A DNA stretch of 64,000 nucleotides from Candidatus Cloacimonadota bacterium (GTDB taxonomy: Bacteria; Cloacimonadota; Cloacimonadia; Cloacimonadales; DAONDQ01). Each line of letters starts with the position of its first letter. Position 1 is the first letter of the stretch. Positions 7,474 to 33,665 of this stretch are shown piece by piece. The translations under genes were made by a program, and so were the position numbers. Location: contig DAONDQ010000004.1 of the NCBI GenBank assembly GCA_035402645.1, positions 293 through 64,292 of the forward strand, given 5' to 3'. Under the pieces are notes generated by a model. The model was not told where the DNA came from, did no database searches, and saw only the letters and a list, made by a program, of their open reading frames with translations.

Positions 7474-9230
7474 GACGCACCTCTTGTCTTATTTTTATTA
7501 TTAATTGGATTCATATTTCCATCTTGGGAAATCTTTTTCATATCTTTAGCCATTGTCCCGTCAGCCATCTGCATCATGGCTTTCTTTCCACCTTGCGAAT
7601 TAGGATCGCCTTGAGCAGCTTGTATACGAGCAAGTCTTTCTGCGTGGTCTTGCGAGGCTTTCGCTGCTTCGCCTTTTGGGAAACCAATAGTTTCCGACGC
7701 CGTAGCATTGGAAACAAGTCCTGCTTCTGCAGCCTTCATAATGAATTCCGGATCGGTATTCATAACCTCAGCTGAATCAATTTCCTCGAATATCTCGTCC
7801 ATAGTGGTAGGAGATGCTTTATGCCCGAGAGTAAGTTGAGCAATATCCTTAGCTATGGCTTTCTGATATATCTTACTTGGAACAGTAATCATAACTTTAG
7901 CTTTCTTCATGGCTTCATCAGAACGTTCAGCTTCTGTCTGTAATGTGAACTGGCGAGGATAAGCTACTGTTACGTCATTAGGCTTATTCTCGTACATATG
8001 CCACAGTTCAGCTATGCGACGTTCAGTTGATTCAAGCATCACACCGAGATAAGCCAATCCGCTAACGAGACCTTCGTTGTCTAATTCCTTACTTTCAGCT
8101 GATGCCATACGAGGTCTGATATTATTGAGATTCAGAGAGATGAGTTCGCGTATTTCTTTCTTCATAGCATCCTGTTTCTCCATCGAAACCTTTAGAGGTT
8201 CGGGAGAAGGATGTATGAATCCCGGACGTTCTGAACCGACAGGATATTTACGCCCTTGTGCTGCACCAGTTACGATTTCTTTTGCCTTAGCTTGATCAGC
8301 TTCTTGAGTTGTTCCTTCTACTGGAGCAGTATTCCCACCTAATCCGCCAGTGCTAACCGCTGCAGTTGATGCGGTCTGTGCCTTACGGATGTACTCCATC
8401 ATATCACTTTTTGGATCATACTGTTCAGTATAGAACGGGAAATTTGATTTCGTTATGTAATTGATGTCGGAAGAAGCAATATTAAGAAGAGCAATCTGAT
8501 AATTGGCTATATCTGCCATCAATGCTTGCTTTGTTTCCAGTATGATAAATGGTATTTCTTTGATTTTCAAATCAAAACCGCTTATCTCGTTTCCTGCTTC
8601 ATCATACTCGGTAATGGAGACGCCCGCCGGTGTCCTAACTAAGTATCGGTAGGTTATCTCTATTTCGTCCGGAAGTCCCCACTGTTCATCAACGTCATTA
8701 CCATGACAACGAAGAAGCAGAACCGATAATTTGTTATCTTCGCCATACTGCCAAGAGAGAATATCCTCAGTAGGGAATGTGTATATGTATGGGTGCTTAT
8801 CTCCGAGGGTAGCCATCGTAGGTCCGATGTTCTTGTGCATATCCACGTATATGCCTACGCGAGCCATAGGAAGAAGTTCAGTTAATACGTTCTCGCCAAT
8901 GTAACCATTCATGCTTGAACCGTGTTCATCTACTCCACCAATCAATCCGGCTATGGCTTTCTGATATGATTCAGAACCATTTGTACGACGAATGTCGTTG
9001 GCTCGACTGAATATGGCTTTCCTAACGTCCTCGATAGCAGTTTTTGCGAAAGCCGGAACATAGGTAATAGCCTTCCTAACAAGGAAATCGTTATTCGTTT
9101 CCCTTGTGGAATAGTATTTAAGATACTGATCTATGAAATCGTCGCCACCGGCATATGTGTAACGCCACTTCTTCCACTTGTCATACATGGCTTTATATTC
9201 GGGATGACGAATATCAATCAGCTTACCCAT
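7470..9230 (-). CDS. portal protein
   Basis: 586 aa, starting 1 nt inside the TerL stop. Size, position and the flexible Gly/Lys/Asp-rich C-terminus fit a portal. The call rests on synteny rather than a motif. Confidence 0.7.
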   Translation of the reverse strand: MGKLIDIRHPEYKAMYDKWKKWRYTYAGGDDFIDQYLKYYSTRETNNDFLVRKAITYVPAFAKTAIEDVRKAIFSRANDIRRTNGSESYQKAIAGLIGGVDEHGSSMNGYIGENVLTELLPMARVGIYVDMHKNIGPTMATLGDKHPYIYTFPTEDILSWQYGEDNKLSVLLLRCHGNDVDEQWGLPDEIEITYRYLVRTPAGVSITEYDEAGNEISGFDLKIKEIPFIILETKQALMADIANYQIALLNIASSDINYITKSNFPFYTEQYDPKSDMMEYIRKAQTASTAAVSTGGLGGNTAPVEGTTQEADQAKAKEIVTGAAQGRKYPVGSERPGFIHPSPEPLKVSMEKQDAMKKEIRELISLNLNNIRPRMASAESKELDNEGLVSGLAYLGVMLESTERRIAELWHMYENKPNDVTVAYPRQFTLQTEAERSDEAMKKAKVMITVPSKIYQKAIAKDIAQLTLGHKASPTTMDEIFEEIDSAEVMNTDPEFIMKAAEAGLVSNATASETIGFPKGEAAKASQDHAERLARIQAAQGDPNSQGGKKAMMQMADGTMAKDMKKISQDGNMNPINNKNKTRGAS

Positions 9231-10909
9231 TAGAAAATTCCTCCTATGTCTTTATATCCCGCGGTCTTCGCTGCGAGATTGAAAGCAATCTCCGAGTAAG
9301 TGCGAGAATGAGCAAAATGGTCAGGTCCGACATTCATGAACTTCGCGACAGGATTGCCATTATCATCTTTCTCGTACACTTTAACAACTGCTTTCATATG
9401 TTCTTTGTATTCCATTTCTGCATCCATAGGAATCTTGATGCGTTTGGCACTAAAACGGCTGATTGCCAAATCCATCCACGATGTCCTGTCTACTGTAACC
9501 GTCGGTAGTTCGCTACCAAGTATGGTATCCCTACTCTTTTGGTCGCGTCCATAGAAGCAAGCATAGGCGATGCCAGGAAATCTTGCACAGAACTTGAGAG
9601 ATTCGCGACGTTCGGGATTTGCATCAATAACTACGCAGTTAGTTGCGTACTTCATTACAAACTTGTCCAGTTCATTGAAGTCCACAACTTTACCTTCGAA
9701 AAGTATACGAGGTATGAAGTTCATGTGCATATCTGAATCAGAACTAACCGGTGCGGGTATCCATTCGCATACTTCCACGTTCAGCCACTTGCCAACATCA
9801 ACGCCCATAGTTACAATATGTGAACGAGAAGAGTCTGCCCCGTTCTTGTATGCGGAAGAACAATCTTTGATTTCGGAATCATTAACTCTCGCTCCCTCTA
9901 CAATATGAGGCAGACCTAATTTCGAGTTATAGAACTCCTGTTCATCAGCAGGATTGATCATCGCCTTGAAGTATTGGCTAACGATTTCCGCGGGGCTAAC
10001 TGTGCCCGAGTAAAGTTGATTGATATAGAAACCGCGGGATGTCGCTTGGCTATTCTGCGAAACCCACTCGCCTTTGGCTAGCCAATCGGTCTTCGTTGCA
10101 TGGTCTAATTTGCCCTTGCAGCTCGTACAAATCAGATACGACTCTTTGACGGAAGGGTCGAAGGCATCTTTGCCGCGAATCTCTACGGATTCGGGGAAGG
10201 TGAGTTCCGTTTGTTTCGAGCAGCAAGGGCATGGGAAGAAGAAATGTTCCATCGTGCTCTGCTTATATGGAACATCAATGCCGAAATCCGGCACGGTCGG
10301 AGTGGATACCATCCACATCTGCTTATCCAACTGACCGCTCATACGTTCCCATACAAGCGGTATATGTTCGACGACCATCTTGTCTAACTCGTCAATGGCG
10401 CATCGACCGACAGGTACGGAAACCAAATTAACTTTAGACCGCGAGCCTCTTATGTAGAGATTCGCCGATCCTGCACGTTTGTGCTTCGTGTTCTTCACAT
10501 CCGAGAACATAGTATCTAAATGGGGACTTAATTCGAGGGCTGCATCGAATCGGGATGAACTGAATATCCCTGCGTTATCATCGTTAGGTAGGACATACAA
10601 TACTGATTCACCACGTATGTCGATATTGAAGAACGTCCAGTTAAGGAGTAACTCGGTGTAACCCATCTGCGCTGCTTTACGACCGACGTTGAGTTCAGCT
10701 TTTGAATCATGCATACCGCGAAGCCAAGGATGATGCTTGAAGTTCCATAACCCCGGATATGGCTTGCCCATTACGCGATATTGTTCTGCCCAATTTGAGC
10801 AAGTCGTTAGCGCCGATCTCTTTAGACCGGTTTCAATCTTGTTGAAAAACAACGCGCCGAGATTCTGCTCGGGTTGCTCAACAAGTGCTAAATTTCCCAG
10901 TGTCATCAT
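9230..10909 (-). CDS. terL: terminase large subunit (GpA-like)
   Basis: 559 aa. It has the GpA-type Walker A variant GRKAAQMGYTE, Walker B CAIDELD, and the C-terminal nuclease signatures MGVDVGKW and VVIDANPERRE. Confidence 0.85.
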   Translation of the reverse strand: MMTLGNLALVEQPEQNLGALFFNKIETGLKRSALTTCSNWAEQYRVMGKPYPGLWNFKHHPWLRGMHDSKAELNVGRKAAQMGYTELLLNWTFFNIDIRGESVLYVLPNDDNAGIFSSSRFDAALELSPHLDTMFSDVKNTKHKRAGSANLYIRGSRSKVNLVSVPVGRCAIDELDKMVVEHIPLVWERMSGQLDKQMWMVSTPTVPDFGIDVPYKQSTMEHFFFPCPCCSKQTELTFPESVEIRGKDAFDPSVKESYLICTSCKGKLDHATKTDWLAKGEWVSQNSQATSRGFYINQLYSGTVSPAEIVSQYFKAMINPADEQEFYNSKLGLPHIVEGARVNDSEIKDCSSAYKNGADSSRSHIVTMGVDVGKWLNVEVCEWIPAPVSSDSDMHMNFIPRILFEGKVVDFNELDKFVMKYATNCVVIDANPERRESLKFCARFPGIAYACFYGRDQKSRDTILGSELPTVTVDRTSWMDLAISRFSAKRIKIPMDAEMEYKEHMKAVVKVYEKDDNGNPVAKFMNVGPDHFAHSRTYSEIAFNLAAKTAGYKDIGGIF

Positions 10910-10979
10910 CTTTCGCGTCTACCCTCTTTATGATTCTCTCTATGAATACGTTTAACGCGCCTAGGTTTCATATGCTTCT

Positions 10980-11522
10980 TCATGATTCTTTCCTCTCCGT
11001 TAAAGCGACCTGCATTTCGCGCACAATATTCTCAATCGTTTCTTTATCTGTAACGTATTTGTTTATGATTCCGACAATCTGCTCTGCCATCCTTATAACC
11101 GTGGTCTTCTCAATAGTGACGCCCATGTCCTTCTCCAATTTATGGCAACTCGTCACCAGTTTCTCGATCTTCAGTATGAGTTCGCTAATCGCGCCGGATT
11201 GAAGAATCATCTCGCTTGCATTTTCGAAGGCGTTCATCTTCTCTTCGAGAGTCATACGAAGTATAGCAATCTCATCGCGCAAGTCCTTAATGCCACTTGA
11301 TTCCCGCATCTCCGCTGCGCGAGTATGGAACTTCGTCAATCGGTAGTTGCGGAGGTTCTTCTCCTTCGCCTCGGTAGTAGCAGTATCACCGCCGTGTGCC
11401 AAACAATACTTCGAACCCACTTCGGCAACGTTGAGACACTGCCCATGAGCCTGTGAACCGGCTTGACACCGATTAGGATCGCGTTCATCCGTTACCCGTT
11501 TGATTCGTTCTTTATCAATCAT
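10980..11522 (-). CDS. putative terminase small subunit (zinc-ribbon plus coiled coil)
   Basis: 180 aa directly upstream of terL. The N-terminus carries RCQAGSQAHGQCLNVAEVGSKYCLAHGG, a C..C..C.H cluster, followed by a helical domain. The call is by position only. Confidence 0.45.
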   Translation of the reverse strand: MIDKERIKRVTDERDPNRCQAGSQAHGQCLNVAEVGSKYCLAHGGDTATTEAKEKNLRNYRLTKFHTRAAEMRESSGIKDLRDEIAILRMTLEEKMNAFENASEMILQSGAISELILKIEKLVTSCHKLEKDMGVTIEKTTVIRMAEQIVGIINKYVTDKETIENIVREMQVALTERKES

Positions 11523-11559
11523 AAAACGATTACTCCATCAGCTTACACACTTTACTGCC

Positions 11560-11575
11560 ATGATTATGCAATCAT
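11560..11575 (-). promoter_or_regulatory. 5'-UTR hairpin of the TGATT-N4-AATCA family
   Basis: ATGATT-ATGC-AATCAT, lying between the predicted -10 element (11588-11593) and the terS start. Confidence 0.4.
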
Positions 11576-11587
11576 ACATTTTCACTT

Positions 11588-11616
11588 ACTATACTACAAA
11601 ACACAAATAATAACAA
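11588..11616 (-). promoter_or_regulatory. sigma70-type promoter, copy 1 of 3 (drives the terS-terL-portal-fibre operon)
   Basis: The minus strand reads TTGTTA-17 nt-TATAGT. The same architecture and flanks (GTAGTATAGTA) occur at 33785-33813 and 33933-33961. Confidence 0.55.
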
Positions 11617-11790
11617 GTAGTGCCTTCCCGCGAAAATATAAAAATCATAAATGCCGATTCACTTTTAACATTTGCCAACGACTCGTGTAACAATTACCCA
11701 CTGGCTCTCGGATTGTGCAATCCGTATGAAGTATTAAATACACCATATATGTGAGTTTCGATGGAGGGTTCGGCGGACTTGGAAAATTTC

Positions 11791-11860
11791 ACAACTTACT
11801 ACAACAATTATAACCCACCGCCTGTTGTAAATGGTTGTTGAATCACAACGCGATACAACA
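11791..11860. repeat. cluster of ACAAC/GTTGT pentamer repeats
   Basis: cACAACttactACAACaatt...ccTGTTGTaaatgGTTGTtgaatcACAACgcgatACAACaaaac. The order is two direct, two inverted and two direct copies, upstream of terS. Confidence 0.5.
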
Positions 11861-11934
11861 AAACTATTTTTAAAATATTTTATTTATTTTGCTTGTATAG
11901 TTTGTTTATTTACGAATGACAATTATATTATTAT

Positions 11935-12058
11935 AGGATAATAATATATCCTATGTTCATTGATAATATAATAGTTTGAAGTTTGTAAAAACTGGCACGA
12001 ACGTGCAAAGCTACAAATTAAAACAAAGGTAAATAATAACAAGATAAAAACTTGTTAT
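11935..12058 (+). promoter_or_regulatory. repeated regulatory module, copy A
   Basis: It opens with the near-palindrome AGGATAATAATATATCCT. A 24-nt block ATATATCCTATGTTCATTGATAAT (11944-11967) follows and is identical to 13236-13259. Next comes a nested hairpin at 11982-12017. The module ends with the hairpin ATAACAAG-ATAAAAA-CTTGTTAT (12036-12058). Confidence 0.55.
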
Positions 12059-12065
12059 CCTAATT

Positions 12066-12451
12066 GAAAAATTATTCTATTGTAATCTGTTGTATCGAAA
12101 ATAAAAAGGTGATACAATGAAAATTTTTAATTATCATTTCGTAATTTTTGGTACTAACGAAAAACGCAATTTAATTATTGACGCCTCTTGCGAATCTGAG
12201 GCAATACAAAAATTCAATTGCAAAACAGAATTACAAAATATTAGAATTGAAAAAATATCTTATGCAAATATTCCGAATAGGAAAAACGCTTATGGTGAAT
12301 TCGTTGTTCAAATTTATGTAAATGGGAAAAGACAAAAAGACAACGAATATTTCGCGACGAATTTCGATGACGCTTTAGCGACCGCGCAAAGTATGATAAC
12401 GAATTACTAAAACAAACAAGATACAACAGATTCACAATAGAATAATTTTTC
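12066..12451 (+). repeat. inverted-repeat pair 1, bracketing ORF 12117-12410
   Basis: The left arm 12066-12096 is GAAAAATTATTCTATTGTAATCTGTTGTATC. Its reverse complement matches 12420-12451 at all 31 positions, with one extra C in the right arm. Confidence 0.9.
12117..12410 (+). CDS. hypothetical early protein (97 aa)
   Basis: ORF preceded by the AAAAGGTGATACAATG leader. No motif recognised. Confidence 0.55.
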   Translation: MKIFNYHFVIFGTNEKRNLIIDASCESEAIQKFNCKTELQNIRIEKISYANIPNRKNAYGEFVVQIYVNGKRQKDNEYFATNFDDALATAQSMITNY

Positions 12452-12465
12452 AAACAAAATAAAAA

Positions 12466-12862
12466 TACTGTTGTATATTGTATAGCTTGCCTTTTGAAAA
12501 GGTGATAAAATGGAAATTAAAATTTTAAAGATAGATGGTTTTACTTGCCTTAATTATTTATCCAGTATGGAAACAATACAAGATAGATATTTAATTCAAG
12601 CGGTTATGTCATACGTTATACAACACAAGGAAACAAAAGTAATTGACCATGCATACTGGAAAGCGGAATATCATTTAATAATTGAAAATGCTTTTGAGAT
12701 ATTTTTTATTAAAGAGCAAACAAAGAAAACGGAAATATATTTAAAACTTATTCCGCTTGAAGAAAATTTATTTTTGAATTACGAATATCAAAATAAAATT
12801 CTATTACTTGGAATTGTCAATTAACAAAAGGCAAAAGGCAAGATATACAATATACAACAGTA
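12466..12862 (+). repeat. inverted-repeat pair 2, bracketing ORF 12510-12824
   Basis: The left arm 12466-12495 is TACTGTTGTATATTGTATAGCTTGCCTTTT. Its reverse complement matches 12833-12862 at 29 of 30 positions. Confidence 0.9.
12510..12824 (+). CDS. hypothetical early protein (104 aa)
   Basis: ORF preceded by the AAAAGGTGATAAAATG leader. No motif recognised. Confidence 0.55.
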   Translation: MEIKILKIDGFTCLNYLSSMETIQDRYLIQAVMSYVIQHKETKVIDHAYWKAEYHLIIENAFEIFFIKEQTKKTEIYLKLIPLEENLFLNYEYQNKILLLGIVN

Positions 12863-12864
12863 TA

Positions 12865-13112
12865 GAAAATATTTTTTAGTGCCTCTTGAATAGCCAAAAG
12901 GTGATAACATGAAAAGCGGAATAATGGAATTAATAAACAAACTGGAAAGAGTAAATAGGAAACTAAAAAGGCTTGAAAGCTATTTAAACAAAAGAGGAAA
13001 TGATATTTTACAGGAAAGACATTTTAGACTTTACAAGGAAAAAAGGCTTTTATTAAAGCATATTTCAATTGAACTAAATTAAAAATTTCAAGAGGCACTA
13101 AAAAATATTTTC
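12865..13112 (+). repeat. inverted-repeat pair 3, bracketing ORF 12909-13082
   Basis: The left arm 12865-12890 is GAAAATATTTTTTAGTGCCTCTTGAA. Its reverse complement is identical to 13087-13112 (26/26). Confidence 0.9.
12909..13082 (+). CDS. hypothetical coiled-coil miniprotein (57 aa, below the ORF-track cutoff)
   Basis: The ATG follows an AAAAGGTGATAACATG leader. The product is MKSGIMELINKLERVNRKLKRLESYLNKRGNDILQERHFRLYKEKRLLLKHISIELN. Confidence 0.45.
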   Translation: MKSGIMELINKLERVNRKLKRLESYLNKRGNDILQERHFRLYKEKRLLLKHISIELN

Positions 13113-13130
13113 AATTTATTTTGTAAAGGC

Positions 13131-13177
13131 TTGAAAATAATTTTTAGTATGCTGTAAATTCAGAAAATTATTTTCAA
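13131..13177 (+). terminator. AT-rich hairpin with a T-tract (weak intrinsic terminator, or an 'empty' fourth repeat unit)
   Basis: TTGAAAATAATTTT (13131-13144) and AAAATTATTTTCAA (13164-13177) pair 14/14 around a 19-nt loop. The downstream sequence is TTATTTTTTACTTTT. Confidence 0.45.
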
Positions 13178-13209
13178 TTATTTTTTACTTTTGTTTGAAC
13201 TATTAAATT

Positions 13210-13353
13210 AAGGATATACTATATATAAGGATATTATATATCCTATGTTCATTGATAATTAAATAGTGTTTTGTTTTTCAAAAACGGGATTTTGAAAATC
13301 CAAGCTGAAAACAAAATACAACAGGGAAATTAAAAAAGATAAAAACTTTTTTA
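13210..13353 (+). promoter_or_regulatory. repeated regulatory module, copy B
   Basis: AGGATAT..ATATCCT near-palindromes are followed by the 24-nt block 13236-13259, identical to copy A. A nested hairpin lies at 13268-13319. The module ends with the hairpin TAAAAAAG-ATAAAAA-CTTTTTTA (13331-13353), which has the same loop as copy A on a compensatorily changed stem. Confidence 0.55.
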
Positions 13354-13392
13354 CTGGATTACGATTTCAAATAATCTTAATCAAATTTCATT

Positions 13393-14490
13393 AAATGATT
13401 GAATATTGCTTTTCCGCTTTCCTCAAAAATGAGGTGCGTAAATGATTAATCTTAAAGGTCTTAAAATTCAGGAAATAGCAAAAGACAAGTGCTTTCCTAA
13501 CGTCAAAAATCCGAGAATTGAACTTATCACCTTTGATATAGATGATACGCTCAAAGATGAAAAGACTACAACAGGAATTAAAAAGCCTTGCGTTGTCTTT
13601 GATGATGGTTCGGGAAAATTTGAAATAGGGCAAGGTCACCGCCGTTGGGCAAGTGCCATGAAATTCGAACATATCAAAACTATTCCGTGTATTGTTATTC
13701 CGAAAAGCGGATTAACGGAATTGGATATGTTGGAAATTCTTATGGACCATAATGAGGAAACACCGCTTTCAAAAGCGGAATGTTTCAAGGCAATAAAGGA
13801 ATTTTTCCTTTTGTCTTTCGGTGATTCGGCAATAATAAAGCGTTGTAAAATGCTTCTGAATTCCTCTTTCGGTAGTCCATCGCCGGAAAAGATAAAAGAT
13901 GCTCGAAAAGAGGCGGTCGAAATGCATGAAGATGCCGACCGCGCCGAAGAAAAAGTAATTTTCGAAAAGCACCACGGCACTATTCAGAATTTCCGCCGTC
14001 TTGCCCTTTTGCCTGTTTCCGTTCAAGAGGAATATATAAAGGCATGGCAAGGTCGGAATTCCGACCTAACTCAGAAAGATATTAAAATACTTTCTGAATT
14101 TTGGAACGAACTTGTAAAGGCTAATCCGGAAACAAAGGTTTCCGAACCTCCAAAAGCGTTCGAAGATAAGGTCGAGGAACTAAAGGAAATAAACCGCCAA
14201 CCGGATGATAAGAAAAAATCCGTAAAGCGGTCAAAGTCCGACATAGAAAATATGTCAAAAGGCACTGAAAATGCTATCGTGCGGAAAACTCTTTCATGGG
14301 TTTTAGGTGAAATTACTGATTCCGAGTTGAAAGATTACGTCAAGGCAAAAAGCAACTAACTAACATGGGACGGGAAATCCCATGAATGAGATTTCGTTTT
14401 TATTGATTTTTATTGTAATAGCCTTTATATACTGGCTATGTTTTGAGAAATAAATAAAATCGGAAAGCGGAAAGCAATATTCAATTATTT
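13393..14490 (+). repeat. inverted-repeat pair bracketing the ParB-like gene
   Basis: The left arm 13393-13422 is AAATGATTGAATATTGCTTTTCCGCTTTCC. Its reverse complement matches 14462-14490 (GGAAAGCGGAAAGCAATATTCAATTATTT) with one indel and one mismatch. Confidence 0.85.
13442..14359 (+). CDS. ParB/Srx-fold N-terminal domain protein (paralogue 1)
   Basis: 305 aa. The ParB box-II-like sequence is EIGQGHRRWASAMKFEHIKTIPCIV. The C-terminal LSWVLGEITD matches LAWTIGEISD of ORF 28311-29213. Confidence 0.65.
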   Translation: MINLKGLKIQEIAKDKCFPNVKNPRIELITFDIDDTLKDEKTTTGIKKPCVVFDDGSGKFEIGQGHRRWASAMKFEHIKTIPCIVIPKSGLTELDMLEILMDHNEETPLSKAECFKAIKEFFLLSFGDSAIIKRCKMLLNSSFGSPSPEKIKDARKEAVEMHEDADRAEEKVIFEKHHGTIQNFRRLALLPVSVQEEYIKAWQGRNSDLTQKDIKILSEFWNELVKANPETKVSEPPKAFEDKVEELKEINRQPDDKKKSVKRSKSDIENMSKGTENAIVRKTLSWVLGEITDSELKDYVKAKSN

Positions 14491-14500
14491 AAGGAACAAA

Positions 14501-14737
14501 ATGGATGATATTTATAAAATTGTTTATTCCGATAAATTCGTTAATATGACGAATTTTGATTTGGCAAATTATTGCCGTCAAAACTTCGGCATTTTCTCGG
14601 ATTATTCGGAAAAGCTATTTGCGAATGATTCATACATCAAGTATCTATCTTGCGCGTTTACAGAATTGAAGAAAAATGACTCTGTAAAGGCGCAATATGT
14701 TCGCGAGGAAATTTTAAAACGATTGATGAATCAGTAA
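14501..14737 (+). CDS. hypothetical protein (78 aa)
   Basis: ORF with an AAGGAACAAAATG leader immediately after the right arm of the ParB-gene repeat. Confidence 0.45.
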   Translation: MDDIYKIVYSDKFVNMTNFDLANYCRQNFGIFSDYSEKLFANDSYIKYLSCAFTELKKNDSVKAQYVREEILKRLMNQ

Positions 14738-14751
14738 CAAAGGGGAAAATT

Positions 14752-14934
14752 ATGATGAAAAGTACAACAGAAACTCTTTTGGAATACTTCTTTGATTCGC
14801 TTATTATGCATGACTATGACAACGCCGACGACATCATCGAAGATTTCCGAAATTTTCCCGATTTTTACAAAGAATTGAATCGTATGTATACCGAAGCAAC
14901 AAAGGAAAGGAATCCGGTACAATGGAAAAGCTAA
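14752..14934 (+). CDS. hypothetical protein (60 aa)
   Basis: ORF preceded by GGGGAAAATTATG, in an operon with its neighbours. Confidence 0.4.
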   Translation: MMKSTTETLLEYFFDSLIMHDYDNADDIIEDFRNFPDFYKELNRMYTEATKERNPVQWKS

Positions 14935-15098
14935 TTGAATTGCACACGATGTATTGCTTGGATGCCATCGTCGACGGAGATTTCAAAAGTTACAAGAAAA
15001 GCTATCTGTATCTTGCGGAATTGAGCAGGAAATTCACTAAACTGCACAAATTCATCGTCATGATTCTCGAATCATTAGAAGAAAGGAGGATGGCATGA
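14922..15098 (+). CDS. hypothetical protein (58 aa, below the ORF-track cutoff)
   Basis: The ATG at 14922 overlaps the end of the previous ORF. The product begins MEKLIELHTMYCLDAIVDGDFKSYKK and the stop is at 15096-15098. The terminator follows 35 nt later. Confidence 0.4.
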   Translation: MEKLIELHTMYCLDAIVDGDFKSYKKSYLYLAELSRKFTKLHKFIVMILESLEERRMA

Positions 15099-15133
15099 AG
15101 TAAACAAGTAAAATTAGTCCTTTTTGATCATGA

Positions 15134-15170
15134 ATGGCGCATAATTTACCCCGATTATGCGCCATTTTTC
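15134..15170 (+). terminator. rho-independent terminator ending the plus-strand early block
   Basis: A perfect 12-bp stem, ATGGCGCATAAT / ATTATGCGCCAT, closes an 8-nt loop and is followed by TTTTC. Confidence 0.8.
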
Positions 15171-15460
15171 GTGCCTGTAAACCGATGACGGCAGAATCAC
15201 CACATAAGGCGCTGATTCTCCGCCCTGCATCCATTTCCGCCTGTAAAAGCGCTAAAAAGCATTAATCATGATTTGCTGATCTTAGCGAATCATAAAATAC
15301 AATGTATCGCGAAAACTGGCTTCGTGGTAAATTCCGGATTGATTCTTCGGTACTCCGAAGATTACATGATTTAGTGCCAAGATTAACAATGTTAGTTTTA
15401 CGAGTTTGGATTTGGTCAGTAAAGGGAAGTCGGATTCAGAATCATTTTGAGGCTGGATTC

Positions 15461-15502
15461 TAACTTACTTACTAATATACTTACTAACTAACTAACTAAC
15501 TT
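15461..15502. repeat. TAACTTAC / CTAA short tandem repeats
   Basis: TAACTTACTTACTAATATACTTACTAACTAACTAACTAACTT. TAACTTAC is the reverse complement of the GTAAGTTA iterons at 33901-33924. Confidence 0.8.
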
Positions 15503-15642
15503 CGTCAAATATGATAAGCATACTCCCCTATATATGTACATATACTGGTCTCCTGTCAGTAACTCCGTAAAGCAAGCCTAAGTTTTCAGCCAGTACGGAC
15601 ACGTAAAAGCCTGTAAAATCGAAATTTAAGCGGTTACTACGC

Positions 15643-15694
15643 AATTAAAGGGCATTTCCCGAAGGTTTTGTAAAACCGACTCCGAGAAATGCCC
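15643..15694 (-). terminator. terminator-like hairpin ending the minus-strand replication block
   Basis: On the minus strand, GGGCATTTC ... GAAATGCCC forms a 9-bp stem. It contains an inner GGTTTT/AAAACC stem and is followed by TTTAATT. It lies 38 nt after the nuclease gene stop. Confidence 0.55.
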
Positions 15695-15731
15695 ATTGGT
15701 AACTTTTGTCAATGAAATGTGTAAACTGAAT

Positions 15732-16901
15732 CTATCGCGCTCGCGTCATGGTATCTAACCATTTATCATTGTCCGATGGCGCAATCATGCAACTGTTAAT
15801 TAACATTTCGCACTGGTTCACCGAAGCTAATTCGGGGTTCACTTCGAACTCGCTGAGCGTATGCTTGAAAAACATCTTCTTGAGCCTTTCGTCGTCGAGA
15901 GCCAGTATACTCCACAAGTATATATACTTCTCCATCAGAGATTTTTGGAAGTCCTTACCGACACCCATACGGAAACTGGCGATTCGTATCTCCGGCATAA
16001 GGGATTGTGCAATCACGAGTTCCTCATACTCCGAAGCCGACATCATTCCCCTATCCCTTAATTGCTTACAACAGAGTTGATCAATACCGCAGTATATCTC
16101 GTCACCCACTTCCGCGCCGAGTGCCCAAGCATAGGTCACGACCTGTCCTGCCCATTCTTCGCTGACCGTTTCGAGGTTCAACATACCATTGACATTGATA
16201 CCGCACACGTTGTGATGCATATAATCTTTGTGTGCTTTATTGTGGTTCTTGGAATGTGCGCCAATCGTTTCATCCCAACCATCACGTAACACACTATACC
16301 CTTTCTTTGGACTTGTTGTCGATGCGCTCATGAAGCCATTGACTTTCCAATCGAGGATGAACGTCGCGATTTTGTTGCCATCGGACGCGCAAGCGGTTTG
16401 GAAACAAAGATCGGGCTTACCTAACAATGGTACGCCGTGCATAGTTCGCGTGACCGTTTTCTCCATTTTAATTGATCCCTCAATCGCCTTGCCCATATCC
16501 ATAGCTAACGATGCCAAAGCACCGGATTGCATATAGCAACGGAAGGCGTATCGACCGGCATTAACAAGGAACTCTCTGTTCCTTACACTATGACTCGCTT
16601 CGACCTGCGTAGTAAGCATAGTTTCGAGGTCGTATTCCGTGCCCGCGGATTTCCCAATCAGTTTCTCGTAAAGCCACGACTTCGCGAACGCATCGAACGA
16701 CGATCCCACGCCCATAGGAACGGTCTGCGGAATCTTCTCCGGCGGATTAGCACAAATCCTTTGGAGGAAGAACTCGTCGGGATACTTGTAGAACTGATTG
16801 ACCGACGTAGGGGATAGGAATTTAGGTCGACGAAGCGGTGGCACTTCCCCGTAAATCGGCTTGAATATTAAAGTCTTTCCATCATGTGTTCGGTAATTCA
16901 T
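15732..16901 (-). CDS. PD-(D/E)XK (RecB/Cas4-like) nuclease
   Basis: 389 aa. Motifs are GKPDLCF, FILDWKVNG (D...D-x-K) and QVVTYAW (QxxxY). The N-terminus contains LIFKPIYGE. Confidence 0.55.
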   Translation of the reverse strand: MNYRTHDGKTLIFKPIYGEVPPLRRPKFLSPTSVNQFYKYPDEFFLQRICANPPEKIPQTVPMGVGSSFDAFAKSWLYEKLIGKSAGTEYDLETMLTTQVEASHSVRNREFLVNAGRYAFRCYMQSGALASLAMDMGKAIEGSIKMEKTVTRTMHGVPLLGKPDLCFQTACASDGNKIATFILDWKVNGFMSASTTSPKKGYSVLRDGWDETIGAHSKNHNKAHKDYMHHNVCGINVNGMLNLETVSEEWAGQVVTYAWALGAEVGDEIYCGIDQLCCKQLRDRGMMSASEYEELVIAQSLMPEIRIASFRMGVGKDFQKSLMEKYIYLWSILALDDERLKKMFFKHTLSEFEVNPELASVNQCEMLINSCMIAPSDNDKWLDTMTRAR

Positions 16902-17106
16902 TTCTCTCCTTTAATTGTTTCTCTATATCGATTAAACACGCTTCCATGCTTTCCATTTGGTAAGCCATGACACCCTCACCCACTCCGATATTAACATACA
17001 TGGTGTAGGTGATTCGTTTATCACCATACATACATTTGTCGACGGAGAAGAAATCATGCTTACCTGCCAATTTCCTCAGCTTCGCTAATGCTTGTTTCTG
17101 TGTCAT
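16882..17106 (-). CDS. hypothetical protein (74 aa)
   Basis: In-operon ORF overlapping both neighbours. Confidence 0.4.
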   Translation of the reverse strand: MTQKQALAKLRKLAGKHDFFSVDKCMYGDKRITYTMYVNIGVGEGVMAYQMESMEACLIDIEKQLKERNELPNT

Positions 17107-28310: not shown

Positions 28311-29213
28311 TTACTGTTCTGAATCACTGTTATCACCCACCAGTTGAGATGTCGTGCTTATACACTGTGATTCCGGCATTACGAACTTGATGTTATTCTC
28401 CTTCGCGACGTGTTCGACAGTGAGAAGCATATCGTAATCACTTATCTCACCTATTGTCCATGCAAGGGCACGAGTAGCAAGTCCGTTACCAAATGTTTCA
28501 CGAATCAAAGTCTGAAGTTCCAGTACCTCGGACACGTGCCTCTGCCTCTTGGCATCTTTCTTTGCTACTCTAATGGTCATCTTCTTTCCATTAGCAGTGC
28601 CTTTAGTTCCCTTGTATTTGTGAACCAACTGAACCATGTCATCGATTGATCCGCCGTTCTTTCTAATAGTATACAGGTCACGAATCATGGTCTGATTGAT
28701 ATTACCAAGTCTTGCTTCTTCTTGGAACTCTTTAGGTAATTGGAGAAGCATACACCGAACCTGTACCCAACCACGAGTTGAGGACAACTTGTCTGCTATC
28801 TCCTGTTGAGTCATTCCTAAGTCGATGAACTTGCCTAATGCATTAGTTTCATCCATGATGTTTAAATCTGCTCTCTTGATGTTCTCCGCGAGATTTATGA
28901 ATCGCGCTTCCACATCACTAAGGTCATCACGTATGAAGCAAGGTATGGTCTCGGCTTCATTTACTTGATGCGCTTTGAATCGACGATGACCTGCAACGAT
29001 TATATACTTCTTACCATCTTTAGGCTCTTTCAATGTCCTAACGATGATTGGTGCGTGTAGACCGTTCTTTTTTATATCGTCAGCTATATCCACCACACTC
29101 AAAGCACTGAAACTACCACGACAGTTGAAATCCGGATCAGCGAATATTTCCTTCACCGGAATCTGATGTACTTGATAGCGTTCCTTCATGTTTTCCAACG
29201 ATAAATCTGCCAT
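28311..29213 (-). CDS. ParB/Srx-fold N-terminal domain protein (paralogue 2)
   Basis: YIIVAGHRRFKAHQVNEAETIPCFI is like ParB box II (GxRRxxA), followed by an HTH-like MTQQEIADKLSSTRGWV. Confidence 0.7.
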   Translation of the reverse strand: MADLSLENMKERYQVHQIPVKEIFADPDFNCRGSFSALSVVDIADDIKKNGLHAPIIVRTLKEPKDGKKYIIVAGHRRFKAHQVNEAETIPCFIRDDLSDVEARFINLAENIKRADLNIMDETNALGKFIDLGMTQQEIADKLSSTRGWVQVRCMLLQLPKEFQEEARLGNINQTMIRDLYTIRKNGGSIDDMVQLVHKYKGTKGTANGKKMTIRVAKKDAKRQRHVSEVLELQTLIRETFGNGLATRALAWTIGEISDYDMLLTVEHVAKENNIKFVMPESQCISTTSQLVGDNSDSEQ

Positions 29214-32663: not shown

Positions 32664-33665
32664 TTATGCGATCTTGATTCCGACGGAAGCGGCATCCTTC
32701 TTAGCCTGCTCTGCTTCCTTCTGAAGTTTGGCAATCTTTGCCTCGGCGTTCTCGTACTTCTTCTGAACGGTTTCCTTGATACGCCTTTCCTTCGCTTCGG
32801 CGAGAGCCTTCTTACGGGCTTCGTACTTGGCGAGAGATTCGGCAATCGCGGCTTTGTCCATTTTCAGAACCCAGCGAATCGCAAGTGCGAATCCATCGGC
32901 AGGAGTACCGGCGTTTTCCTCTTTGCAGAGTTTCGCGCCAATAGCCGGTGATTCATATTCACCCTTGATTTCGGCAGGTTTCCTCATGACAGGAATTGCC
33001 ACGAATTCTTCCGGCTGACCGTCCTTGCCTTCGCGACGTGCCTTGTCGAGTTCCTTCTTCCTTGATTCAACAAGGGGAACGAATTCAACGGGAGGAAGAG
33101 TCATGGCTCTGTCAAGGAAAGCTGCGATTTCGCCTTCGGGTAGCTTGCTGAGTGCATACGCATTACCGAGTTTGATTTCACCGCTATCAACGGAGTCCTG
33201 TACTTCCTTGGGAAGAGTAAGGAGACCAAAGCGTTCTGAAATCCATGCCGTTGATTTGCAAATCTTCTGAGCGAGATCGGCAACGGTCATGAGAGGGTAG
33301 ACGGAAAGCATACGCTTGAGACCTTTGGCGTACTCAACGGGCTTTGTGTCGACCTTCTGAATATTCGCAACAATCTGAGTTTCAAGAGCTTCTGCCTCTG
33401 AAACATCGAGGATCTGAACAGGTATCTCAATCAAACCTGCCCTCTTTGCGCCTGTATAGCGATGGAGACCATCAACGATACAGAATTTCCCCGCATTTTC
33501 GCCGTCGCGGAGTTCACGGACGCTAATGGGATTTACGATTCCCTTAGCCTTAATCGATTCTGCAATCTCCTGGAACTGTTCTGATTCCTCATTTACTGAG
33601 CGCAGAGCGACGGGAGATTCGACGATCTGATCCAGTTTGAGTGTCGCAAGTTTTGACATTTGCAA
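32664..33665 (-). CDS. ParB/Srx-fold N-terminal domain protein (paralogue 3) with a Lys/Ala/Glu-rich C-terminal tail
   Basis: CIVDGLHRYTGAKRAGLIEIPVQIL (ParB box II-like) is followed by an HTH-like MTVADLAQKICKSTAWISERF. This is the first gene of the minus-strand block. Confidence 0.65.
   Translation of the reverse strand: MQMSKLATLKLDQIVESPVALRSVNEESEQFQEIAESIKAKGIVNPISVRELRDGENAGKFCIVDGLHRYTGAKRAGLIEIPVQILDVSEAEALETQIVANIQKVDTKPVEYAKGLKRMLSVYPLMTVADLAQKICKSTAWISERFGLLTLPKEVQDSVDSGEIKLGNAYALSKLPEGEIAAFLDRAMTLPPVEFVPLVESRKKELDKARREGKDGQPEEFVAIPVMRKPAEIKGEYESPAIGAKLCKEENAGTPADGFALAIRWVLKMDKAAIAESLAKYEARKKALAEAKERRIKETVQKKYENAEAKIAKLQKEAEQAKKDAASVGIKIA

Follow-up and report, generated by a model that had tools for sequence, protein, structure and literature searches.

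In the stretch of DNA analysed here, 64,000 nt of contig DAONDQ010000004.1 from Candidatus Cloacimonadota bacterium (referred to below as the window), a short module is present in two copies, A and B, which head both halves of a plus-strand gene island of a phage genome. With somewhat more confidence than doubt, we read each copy as the 5' leader of an early transcript with a boxB-boxA antitermination signal of the ribosomal RNA (rRNA) operon type, reused by the phage. The 24-mer ATATATCCTATGTTCATTGATAAT, identical at positions 11944–11967 and 13236–13259, is most likely composed of the 3' stem arm of a boxB-like RNA hairpin and the boxA after it, and not of an operator and a core promoter; it is read so because the conserved word in its second half corresponds to the boxA of rRNA (rrn) operons and stands after a hairpin, downstream of a putative promoter. 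The module probably equips RNA polymerase with the host Nus factors NusB/S10 where the array begins, and once more before a ParB-like gene. The succession of putative promoter, hairpin and boxA has its parallel in the leader set of rrn operons, and the repetition ahead of the next large unit in their 16S–23S spacer set.

Results

The 24-mer occurs twice in 64 kb, against an expectation of 0. No third site appears in the window even if up to three mismatches are allowed, and 100 shuffles gave no match. It belongs to a wider repeat of 60 nt with 78% identity (11932–11991 and 13224–13283). A sequence-only reading of this DNA, made before any search, had described a duplicated module with this shared 24-mer, an AGGATAT...ATATCCT near-palindrome in both copies, then a nested and a terminal hairpin with a common loop, copy A preceding units 1–3 and copy B preceding the ParB-like unit. 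All these elements were recovered: the coordinates and the exact identity of the 24-mer, the palindromes, the folds, coordinates and stems of the hairpins in both copies, and the positions relative to the small genes (12117–13082) and the ParB_N gene (13442–14359; Table 1). Its general view of the module as duplicated, selected and regulatory, standing at the head of both halves of the island, also holds, and an equivalent module was found in five related phage lineages. In copy B an additional direct copy of AAGGATAT at 13210–13217 provides an alternative 5' arm for the palindrome. In copy A UUAUCCUA, situated directly after leader hairpin 2 (12055–12062), could pair with UAGGAUAA in the 5' arm of the boxB-like hairpin (11934–11941). 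This may be an alternative long-range closure of the leader; since copy B has no counterpart, it may equally be due to chance.

Relatives were found by protein search with the ParB-like gene, which gave eight homologues with 44–70% identity, and one more contig was reached via gene 1. Four contigs from other metagenomes (L002–L005) encode an identical ParB-like protein and are 100% identical over 11520–13450, so that they provide no variation. Five further metagenomic phage lineages do (L009/L010, L011/L012, L013, L014–L016 and L038). They have in common a minus-strand gene for the putative small terminase (terS), a long intergenic region, small plus-strand genes with flanking inverted repeats and the ParB-like gene. 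Across these lineages the palindrome varies in sequence, arm length and half-site spacing (11–24 nt), and it always stands 0–2 nt ahead of a conserved word, TGTTCTTTGA(M)A, which has the form TGTTCATTGATAAT in the window. In an unbiased word count over nine leader regions of six phage lineages TGTTCTTTGA ranked first, being present in eight of the nine with at most one mismatch, with a maximum of 6 in 150 shuffles. Folding of the 42 nt upstream of the word gave a hairpin ending 0–2 nt before it in all nine cases, with stems of 8–13 pairs in these folds (arm lengths overall 6–13 pairs) and with loops and lengths that vary. Without exception the element lies on the sense strand, and in the window, L009 and L014 it is found both at the array head and again before the ParB-like gene. 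The second position is also occupied in L011; the L011 and L038 loci each cover one module position only.

The sequence-only reading had proposed to look for the 24-mer in related phages. IMG/VR was searched with its 19-mer core TCCTATGTTCATTGATAAT, not with the full 24-mer, and returned one chance match, inside a 733-aa open reading frame (ORF) of an unrelated phage; the relatives keep the architecture of the module and not the 24-mer as such. Megablast of 9000–17000 against INPHARED phages gave no match, and none was obtained in IMG/VR with the ParB-like protein, the putative terS protein or the ParB profile. When metagenomes were scanned with the 20-mer TCATTAAATGATTGAATATT, which is conserved in both the window and L011, the 10 matches obtained were chance ones in A/T-rich coding DNA.

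For comparison with known signals, GTTCTTTGAAAA was taken by us to be the boxA of rRNA operons in Gram-positive bacteria, and this assumption was then checked directly on rrn operons. Leader and spacer elements were read from plasmid-borne operons located with the 5' region of E. coli 16S rRNA (Table 1). A hairpin directly precedes both Hymenobacter sites and the Priestia spacer site, as judged by folding, and the gap between hairpin and boxA is 4 nt in E. coli, 1 and 3 nt in Hymenobacter and 0–2 nt in nine of nine phage instances. Four phage copies (L009 A, L013, L014 A and L014 B) carry GTTCTTTGA, the rrn boxA of Hymenobacter, Phocaeicola and Priestia. The window element is one base off TGTTCTTTGA, and L038 has C at the U6 position, as in Aquifex. 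Literature string searches with GTTCTTTGA, GUUCUUUGA and TTCTTTGAAAA returned only primers and small interfering RNAs. To reach rrn operons of the host, a ParB profile was run on genome contigs, with no match, and the WWE1 16S probe (WWE1-408, used in fluorescence in situ hybridization, PMC3996565) gave four matches, all in non-Cloacimonadota genomes. The boxA consensus of gamma-proteobacteria is GYTCTTTAANA (PMC5725501). NusB-NusE reads 8 nt of boxA, with G2, C5 and U6 being critical and a purine tolerated at position 9, and a contiguous site for double-stranded RNA was proposed to hold the boxB stem (PMC3177189). In rrn operons one boxB-boxA-boxC set is located just after P2 and another upstream of 23S, and leader-trailer helices, cut by RNase III, flank each rRNA (PMC10250234).

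Downstream of boxA both copies fold into the same architecture, in which a spacer of 11 nt separates a long nested hairpin from an 8-bp one, and none of 200 shuffles folded as well. Both leader hairpins are structures under selection. Hairpin 1 occurs in every copy, with interiors that differ; its L011 ortholog of copy B keeps the outer stem GUGUUUUG/CAAAAUAC around a different interior. In hairpin 2 three pairs are altered on both sides between A and B, from which the sequence-only reading had deduced selection on structure and not on sequence; L038 and L011 extend this set of compensatory changes, and the downstream hairpins are indeed conserved as structure. In the four homologous copies (window A and B, L038 and L011) 32 of 32 cells pair, double changes are found in six of the eight pairs, and the one G-U pair points to RNA and not to a DNA cruciform. 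This covariation score was reached by none of 500 shuffles, and slid registers pair 37–65% of cells, with the comparison covering four sequences only and the hairpin segments cut by eye. The positions are orthologous: hairpin 2 is bordered by ATACAACAG and ACTGGATTAYGATT in window B and L011, and it precedes the first helix arm in window A and L038. It is not terminator-like, having 1–2 G-C pairs per stem and no U-tail, and no plus-strand terminator was predicted in 11400–15800. With E values of up to 1 allowed, Rfam gave no credible match for the window region, the single match being a spurious, below-threshold microRNA model at 15646–15698 (22.1 bits against a gathering threshold of 104, E 0.38); the five related loci gave no match at gathering thresholds.

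Beyond the leader, every one of the early-island genes lies within inverted repeats of 26–41 pairs placed 5' and 3' of the coding sequence (Table 1). The relatives have the same gene-enclosing layout with unrelated arms (for instance AGTGTCCAGAATATAGCCTTCCG / CGGAAGGCTATATTCTGGACACT in L009, and likewise in L014); only the core CTGTTGTA / TACAACAG is common. RNase III would be expected to cut such gene-enclosing helices of 20–40 bp, by analogy with the rRNA leader-trailer helices which they resemble. A short core, ATACAACAG / CTGTTGTAT, is found repeatedly in the flanking arms, and also behind hairpin 1 of copy B (12414–12429, 12845–12860 and 13309–13324, with complements at 12086–12094 and 12468–12476). 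It is also found in L011, L014 and L038, and may be a cleavage or recognition site.

Promoters could be proposed for both copies. In copy A the putative promoter P_A was read from the sequence, and the arrangement of its −10 element and the hairpin agrees with that in the relatives and in rrn P2. A consensus scan prefers there the competing ATGACA-18-AATAAT (11916–11945), from which transcription would start inside the 3' arm of the palindrome; copy B has no counterpart of it. The putative P_B is in register with TTGACT-16-TAAGGT of L011, and near-consensus candidates occupy the same relative place in L009 B (TTGCAT-16-TGaTATACT) and L014 B (TTGCAT-16-TGaTATGGT). Copy B also contains a Bacteroidota-type TAnnTTTG, TACTTTTG, at 13186–13193, and could be an internal promoter-less reload site instead of having a promoter of its own. 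Where −10-like hexamers are assignable, they end approximately 3–14 nt 5' of the hairpin, and the palindrome is downstream of the best −10 elements. As far as promoters can be predicted from sequence, the hairpin and boxA would be transcribed in every reading except that of the consensus scanner. Words of the ACTATTTTCA type are common to six of the nine leader regions. An A/T-rich motif, AAAAYTATTTTYAAWWTATTTT, is located upstream of both modules (11862–11895, 13100–13122 and 13163–13185), and L009 and L011 have similar motifs. A role as UP-like promoter element is possible, but in copy B the motif overlaps the 3' arm of the gene-3 helix. Between the two halves of the island, the segment 13087–13148 might act as a terminator (Table 1).

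Table 1. Elements of the duplicated module and the plus-strand island, with corresponding elements of related phages and of rrn operons. Positions refer to the window.
Feature	Position	Strand	Sequence and properties
boxB-like hairpin, copy A	11933–11954	+	ATAGGATA-ATAATA-TATCCTAT; 8 bp, 6-nt loop; free energy −7.2, z −2.6; stem ends 0 nt before boxA
boxB-like hairpin, copy B	13228–13244	+	AGGATAT-TAT-ATATCCT; 7 bp, 3-nt loop; free energy −10.0, z −4.2; stem ends 2 nt before boxA
boxA-like element, copy A	11954–11967	+	TGTTCATTGATAAT; second half of the exact 24-mer
boxA-like element, copy B	13246–13259	+	TGTTCATTGATAAT; second half of the exact 24-mer
Leader hairpin 1, copy A	11974–12024	+	nested; in minimum free energy and centroid structures; z −3.3 for 11968–12060
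Leader hairpin 1, copy B	13266–13319	+	nested; z −3.5 (fold of 13260–13355)
Leader hairpin 2, copy A	12036–12058	+	AUAACAAG (AUAAAAA) CUUGUUAU; 8 bp
Leader hairpin 2, copy B	13331–13353	+	UAAAAAAG (AUAAAAA) CUUUUUUA; 8 bp
Leader hairpin 2, L038			AAAACGAA (AUAGAAA) UUCGUUUU
Leader hairpin 2, L011			UAUGGGAG (AUGCC) CUCCUAUA
A/T-rich block	11862–11895	+	AACTATTTTTAAAATATTTTATTTATTTTGC; resembles AACTATTTTCATTTATTTTTTATTTTGC of L009; possibly UP-element-like
Putative promoter P_A	11902–11929	+	TTGTTT-16-TATATT; −10 at 11924–11929, ending 3 nt before the hairpin
Putative promoter P_B	13195–13222	+	TTGAAC-16-TACTAT; TTGAAC 13195–13200, TACTAT 13217–13222
Region between the two halves	13087–13148	+	3' arm of gene-3 helix, then A/T-rich 18-bp local hairpin and U-rich tracts; not listed by the consensus terminator scan
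Island gene 1	12117–12410	+	small gene
Island gene 2	12510–12824	+	small gene
Island gene 3	12909–13082	+	small gene
ParB_N gene	13442–14359	+	305 aa; more small ORFs also in the island
Helix around gene 1	12063–12097 / 12419–12454	+	RNA duplex −42.3 kcal/mol, z −9.3, 33 pairs
Helix around gene 2	12448–12497 / 12831–12891	+	duplex −45.5 kcal/mol, z −9.6
Helix around gene 3	12838–12891 / 13086–13134	+	duplex −42.2 kcal/mol, z −7.8
Helix around ParB-like gene	13387–13412 / 14471–14496	+	26 nt, 92% complementary; arm sequence conserved in L011
Palindrome / conserved word, window A			ATAGGATAATAATATATCCTAT / GTTCATTGATAAT
Palindrome / conserved word, window B			AAGGATATTATATATCCTAT / GTTCATTGATAAT
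Palindrome / conserved word, L038			ATATAAGttatataggCTTATAT / GTTCCTTGATATT
Palindrome / conserved word, L011			AAGATAATTATATCTTGT / GTTCTGTGATATT
Palindrome / conserved word, L009 A			CAGTAAATAAtatttatTTATTTACTGT / GTTCTTTGACATC
Palindrome / conserved word, L009 B			CAGTAAAGAGT..ACTCTATACTGGA / GTTCATTTCGGAG
Palindrome / conserved word, L013			TAGGGT..ACCCTAtaaatgcgat / GTTCTTTGACATA
Palindrome / conserved word, L014 A			AGTAAATAAtaaTTATTTACTGC / GTTCTTTGAAAAT
Palindrome / conserved word, L014 B			ATAGTAA..TTACTATAT / GTTCTTTGAAAAG
rrn leader, Hymenobacter volaticus (Bacteroidota)			GTTCTTTGAATGT; 166 nt before 16S start
rrn spacer, Hymenobacter volaticus			GTTCTTTGACGTA; ~145 nt after 16S
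rrn leader, Priestia megaterium			TATAAT, 6 nt, hairpin GTTGC..GCAAC, then GC-TGAACTTTGAAAAC
rrn spacer, Priestia megaterium			TGTTCTTTGAAAAC
rrn leader, Phocaeicola massiliensis			−7 motif TAtcTTTG, hairpin CTTTCC..GGAAAG, then GTTCTTTGAAAC
rrnB P2 leader, E. coli			TATTAT, boxB hairpin GCCGC..GCGGC, then ACT-GCTCTTTAACAA, then TGTGTGGG

The window represents a nearly complete phage genome, and an identical contig of 64,564 bp is present in ENA ERZ27257423. On the minus strand, up to 11522, it encodes a large terminase of the gpA type, a portal protein and a probable small terminase (terS); further phage genes specify a DNA ligase, a family-A polymerase, an SNF2 helicase, a DUF5906 primase-helicase, a Dam methylase and two more ParB proteins with a helix-turn-helix (HTH) domain. 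The plus-strand island (approximately 11.9–15.5 kb) is flanked on both sides by minus-strand blocks and has a G+C content of 0.295 versus about 0.42 in the rest of the window. Three proteins of the genome have a ParB_N domain (13442–14359, 28311–29213 and 32664–33665), both minus-strand ones (28311–29213 and 32664–33665) carrying the ParB HTH domain as well, and the match of the early one (13442–14359) is marginal (27.1 bits against a cutoff of 26.3). No Pfam family was found for the small early proteins, and their sole PHROG match is a family without known function. A hairpin with 18-nt arms, 83% complementary, at 15647–15697 marks the convergent junction of the island with the minus-strand gene 15732–16901 and is probably a bidirectional terminator.

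Several repeats are peculiar to the relatives. Tandem direct repeats of 22–60 nt lie between terS and the first module (L009 6790–6850; L013 ~1040–1100 and 1250–1320; L014 1–110); they could be terminase (cos/pac) sites or replication iterons, and no equivalent was seen in 11523–11900 of the window. Their copy number changes, by one 22-nt unit between L009 and L010, and together with three small differences this makes up the microvariation within L009/L010 and L014/L015/L016, all of it outside the hairpins. In L013 the motif ATAGGCTAT or its complement is repeated at least five times through the leader and array (1550–2330), as a lineage-specific feature.

Discussion

The sequence of events which we infer for the module is as follows. 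Host RNA polymerase would initiate a few nucleotides upstream of the palindrome, which would fold in the nascent RNA as a boxB-like hairpin. The single-stranded word right after it, U-GUUCAUUGAUAA, would serve as boxA, for which the relatives have the canonical GUUCUUUGA(A/C)A. Binding of host NusB-S10 (NusE) to this word would, together with NusA and NusG, convert the polymerase to a termination-resistant form, able to withstand Rho-dependent and hairpin-induced termination along an A/U-rich array that consists mostly of structure and short ORFs. A leader tethered near the RNA exit may also help the trailer arms to pair into the long helices enclosing the genes, from which RNase III would then free monocistronic mRNAs whose ends are base-paired. 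Transcription beyond the first half would run into the arm of the gene-3 helix, the A/T-rich hairpin and the U-tracts (13087–13148). Downstream of these, the ParB-like half would be served by a second promoter, or by an internal site for reloading, that has a hairpin and a boxA of its own, in parallel with the spacer set of rrn operons.

One may go further and consider the whole island as a protein-coding mimic of an rRNA operon, with an A/T-rich block, a promoter, two Nus-loading sites and a leader-trailer helix for each ORF; this extension we put forward tentatively, with more doubt than belief. That the phage borrows the logic of the rRNA transcription antitermination complex (rrnTAC) and of RNase III for expressing its first mRNAs and cutting them out, and that this is conserved in a clade of phages of an uncultivated phylum, is likewise possible rather than probable.

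Several observations weigh against the assignment as an rrn-type leader. The identification of boxA is based on a word of 9–12 nt plus its context, and the word of the window, GTTCATTGA, has a transversion placing A at the critical U6 position. At position 7, L011 carries a G, and the word of L009 copy B is degenerate (GTTCATTTC). The close clade of the window may therefore bind Nus factors weakly or need a phage helper. In L013 (2311–2410) and L017 (150–243) the ParB-like gene directly follows the last small gene with no second module, so that the duplication is not universal in the clade. The consensus scan predicted no clear internal terminators in the array, and boxA of E. coli can also repress, as at suhB (PMC5725501). 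The palindrome, at about +1 to +25, occupies what is also a classical operator position, with the third, direct AAGGATAT in copy B. Finally, the host assignment is based on the label of a metagenome-assembled genome, the source name 'Candidatus Cloacimonadota bacterium' being attached to the ParB-like protein only.

An operator is what the sequence-only reading implied: a palindrome and a core-promoter 24-mer bound by a phage sigma factor or ParB. In its general form the palindrome would be a DNA operator of a dimeric phage regulator, for instance a KorB-like ParB protein, lying over the transcription start. It is attractive in that the palindrome is phage-specific yet common to both copies of a phage (AGGAT..ATCCT in the window, AGTAA..TTACT in L009 and L014), that copy B has the additional direct half-site and is followed by the ParB_N gene, and that a palindrome at the start site is where a repressor classically sits. 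Moreover, the best promoter of the scan in copy A would put the palindrome over the −10 element and the start; copy B, however, lacks that promoter. A dimeric regulator would require fixed spacing, and the centre-to-centre distance of half-sites differs within a phage (12/11 nt in the window, 15/13 in L014 and 19/24 in L009). Words like TAGGATAT are not enriched in the window (76 found versus 77 expected), and an operator leaves the adjacent word, identical to rrn boxA, unexplained. Among the 30 ORFs scanned against Pfam, which are a part of the total, no phage sigma factor was found. We consider the operator unlikely, and have the same low expectation for the accompanying idea that the 24-mer combines an operator half-site with a core promoter; varying spacing, the boxA identity and the missing −10 partner led us to abandon this part of the sequence-only reading. 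The related proposal that the conserved word provides the −35 hexamer (TTGACA / TTGAAA / TTGATA) of a promoter firing downstream of the palindrome is highly improbable: a perfect TTGACA does occur within the word of L009 copy A and L013, but in eight of eight instances no −10-like hexamer is found 16–18 nt downstream, and the invariant GTTC 5' of the hexamer has no role in it. A −35 function of TTGAYA was rejected for this lack of a partner, and a Bacteroidota −33/−7 reading of the TTTG within the word was rejected as no TAnnTTTG occurs at the right spacing downstream.

Two other explanations accept the RNA hairpin and differ in what it does. Phage-specific antitermination would have the hairpin bound by an N-like or other phage early RNA-binding protein, boxA giving the host only an auxiliary contact, as it does in the nut sites of lambda. 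The stem-base sequences, the same in both copies of a phage and different between lineages, recall the boxB/N specificity of lambdoid phages, and boxA is weakened in the window clade (A6, G7 or C6), as in lambda; a weak boxA might need a helper (PMC3177189). On the other hand, the hairpin precedes boxA in every instance, as in rrn, and the lambda nut order is boxA, then boxB (PMC10250234); loops differ within one phage (AUAAUA versus UAU); and the early proteins offer no candidate or N-like family (none in Pfam, in PHROG only a family without known function). This mechanism appears to us rather improbable. A purely structural 5' leader, in which hairpins shield the 5' end of mRNA or mark processing sites and the likeness to boxA is coincidental, would fit the strong folds and the covariation of hairpin 2, and short chance matches come easily in a very A/U-rich region. 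Yet the word is the most conserved element, is unpaired between the hairpins and matches boxA in G2, C5, the U-tract and the purine, and stabilising hairpins need no conserved single-stranded word; we give such a leader little credence. The rrn-type leader thus remains our preferred interpretation.

If it is true, a signal in rrn order, used twice per early region, apparently without N, and joined with rRNA-like helices around the genes, would show a novel manner in which a virus exploits the most processive transcription of its host. It would extend the biology of boxA to the FCB-related candidate phylum Cloacimonadota. The compact natural cassette of promoter, hairpin, boxA and insulating helices would be a candidate part for synthetic biology, and for annotation there would be a caution that a palindrome and a conserved word at the head of phage operons need not be operators.

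boxA and Nus factors are known from rRNA operons, from N-dependent nut sites of lambdoid phages and from a few chromosomal leaders. The rrn antiterminators, with their boxB-boxA-boxC sets and the rrnTAC formed with NusA, NusB, NusE, NusG, SuhB and S4, resemble the phage module in that a hairpin and, a few nucleotides on, boxA follow the promoter, which in the phage is putative. Bacteroidota and Bacillota rrn operons have exactly the boxA of the relatives, GUUCUUUGA, from which the window is one base off; a second set stands in the middle of the operon, and downstream units lie inside long helices of the leader-trailer type. The phage module differs from them in driving short protein-coding genes with Shine-Dalgarno sites instead of rRNA, in having two further conserved leader hairpins after boxA and ahead of the first helix arm, in the lack of a clear boxC and in the deviant boxA of the window. 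The distance from boxA to the first helix arm is about 95 nt, compared with 18–19 nt between boxA and boxC in enterobacteria (PMC10250234).

Lambdoid nut sites likewise belong to phage early leader RNA, combine boxA with a stem-loop and occur twice per genome (nutL and nutR), each heading an early operon. In the module described here the order is reversed, with the hairpin first, neither an N homologue nor a conserved loop was found, and boxA of the relatives has the full consensus and is not truncated. Like the boxA elements of the suhB 5' untranslated region and of the S10 operon (PMC5725501), the module would recruit the host Nus complex through a leader boxA to a transcript other than rRNA. 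With such non-rRNA elements it also shares the kind of RNA to be protected from Rho, which is long and poorly translated or structured by repeats; unlike it, they are chromosomal, have no adjacent conserved hairpin and are not duplicated within an operon. Stringer et al. reportedly described boxA in 2020 in the leaders of arrays of clustered regularly interspaced short palindromic repeats (CRISPR). In the early region of T7 a polycistronic transcript is cut by RNase III at intergenic double-stranded elements into stable monocistronic mRNAs. Those elements are local intergenic hairpins and have no boxA, whereas each helix of the island pairs the 5' flank of a gene with its 3' flank.

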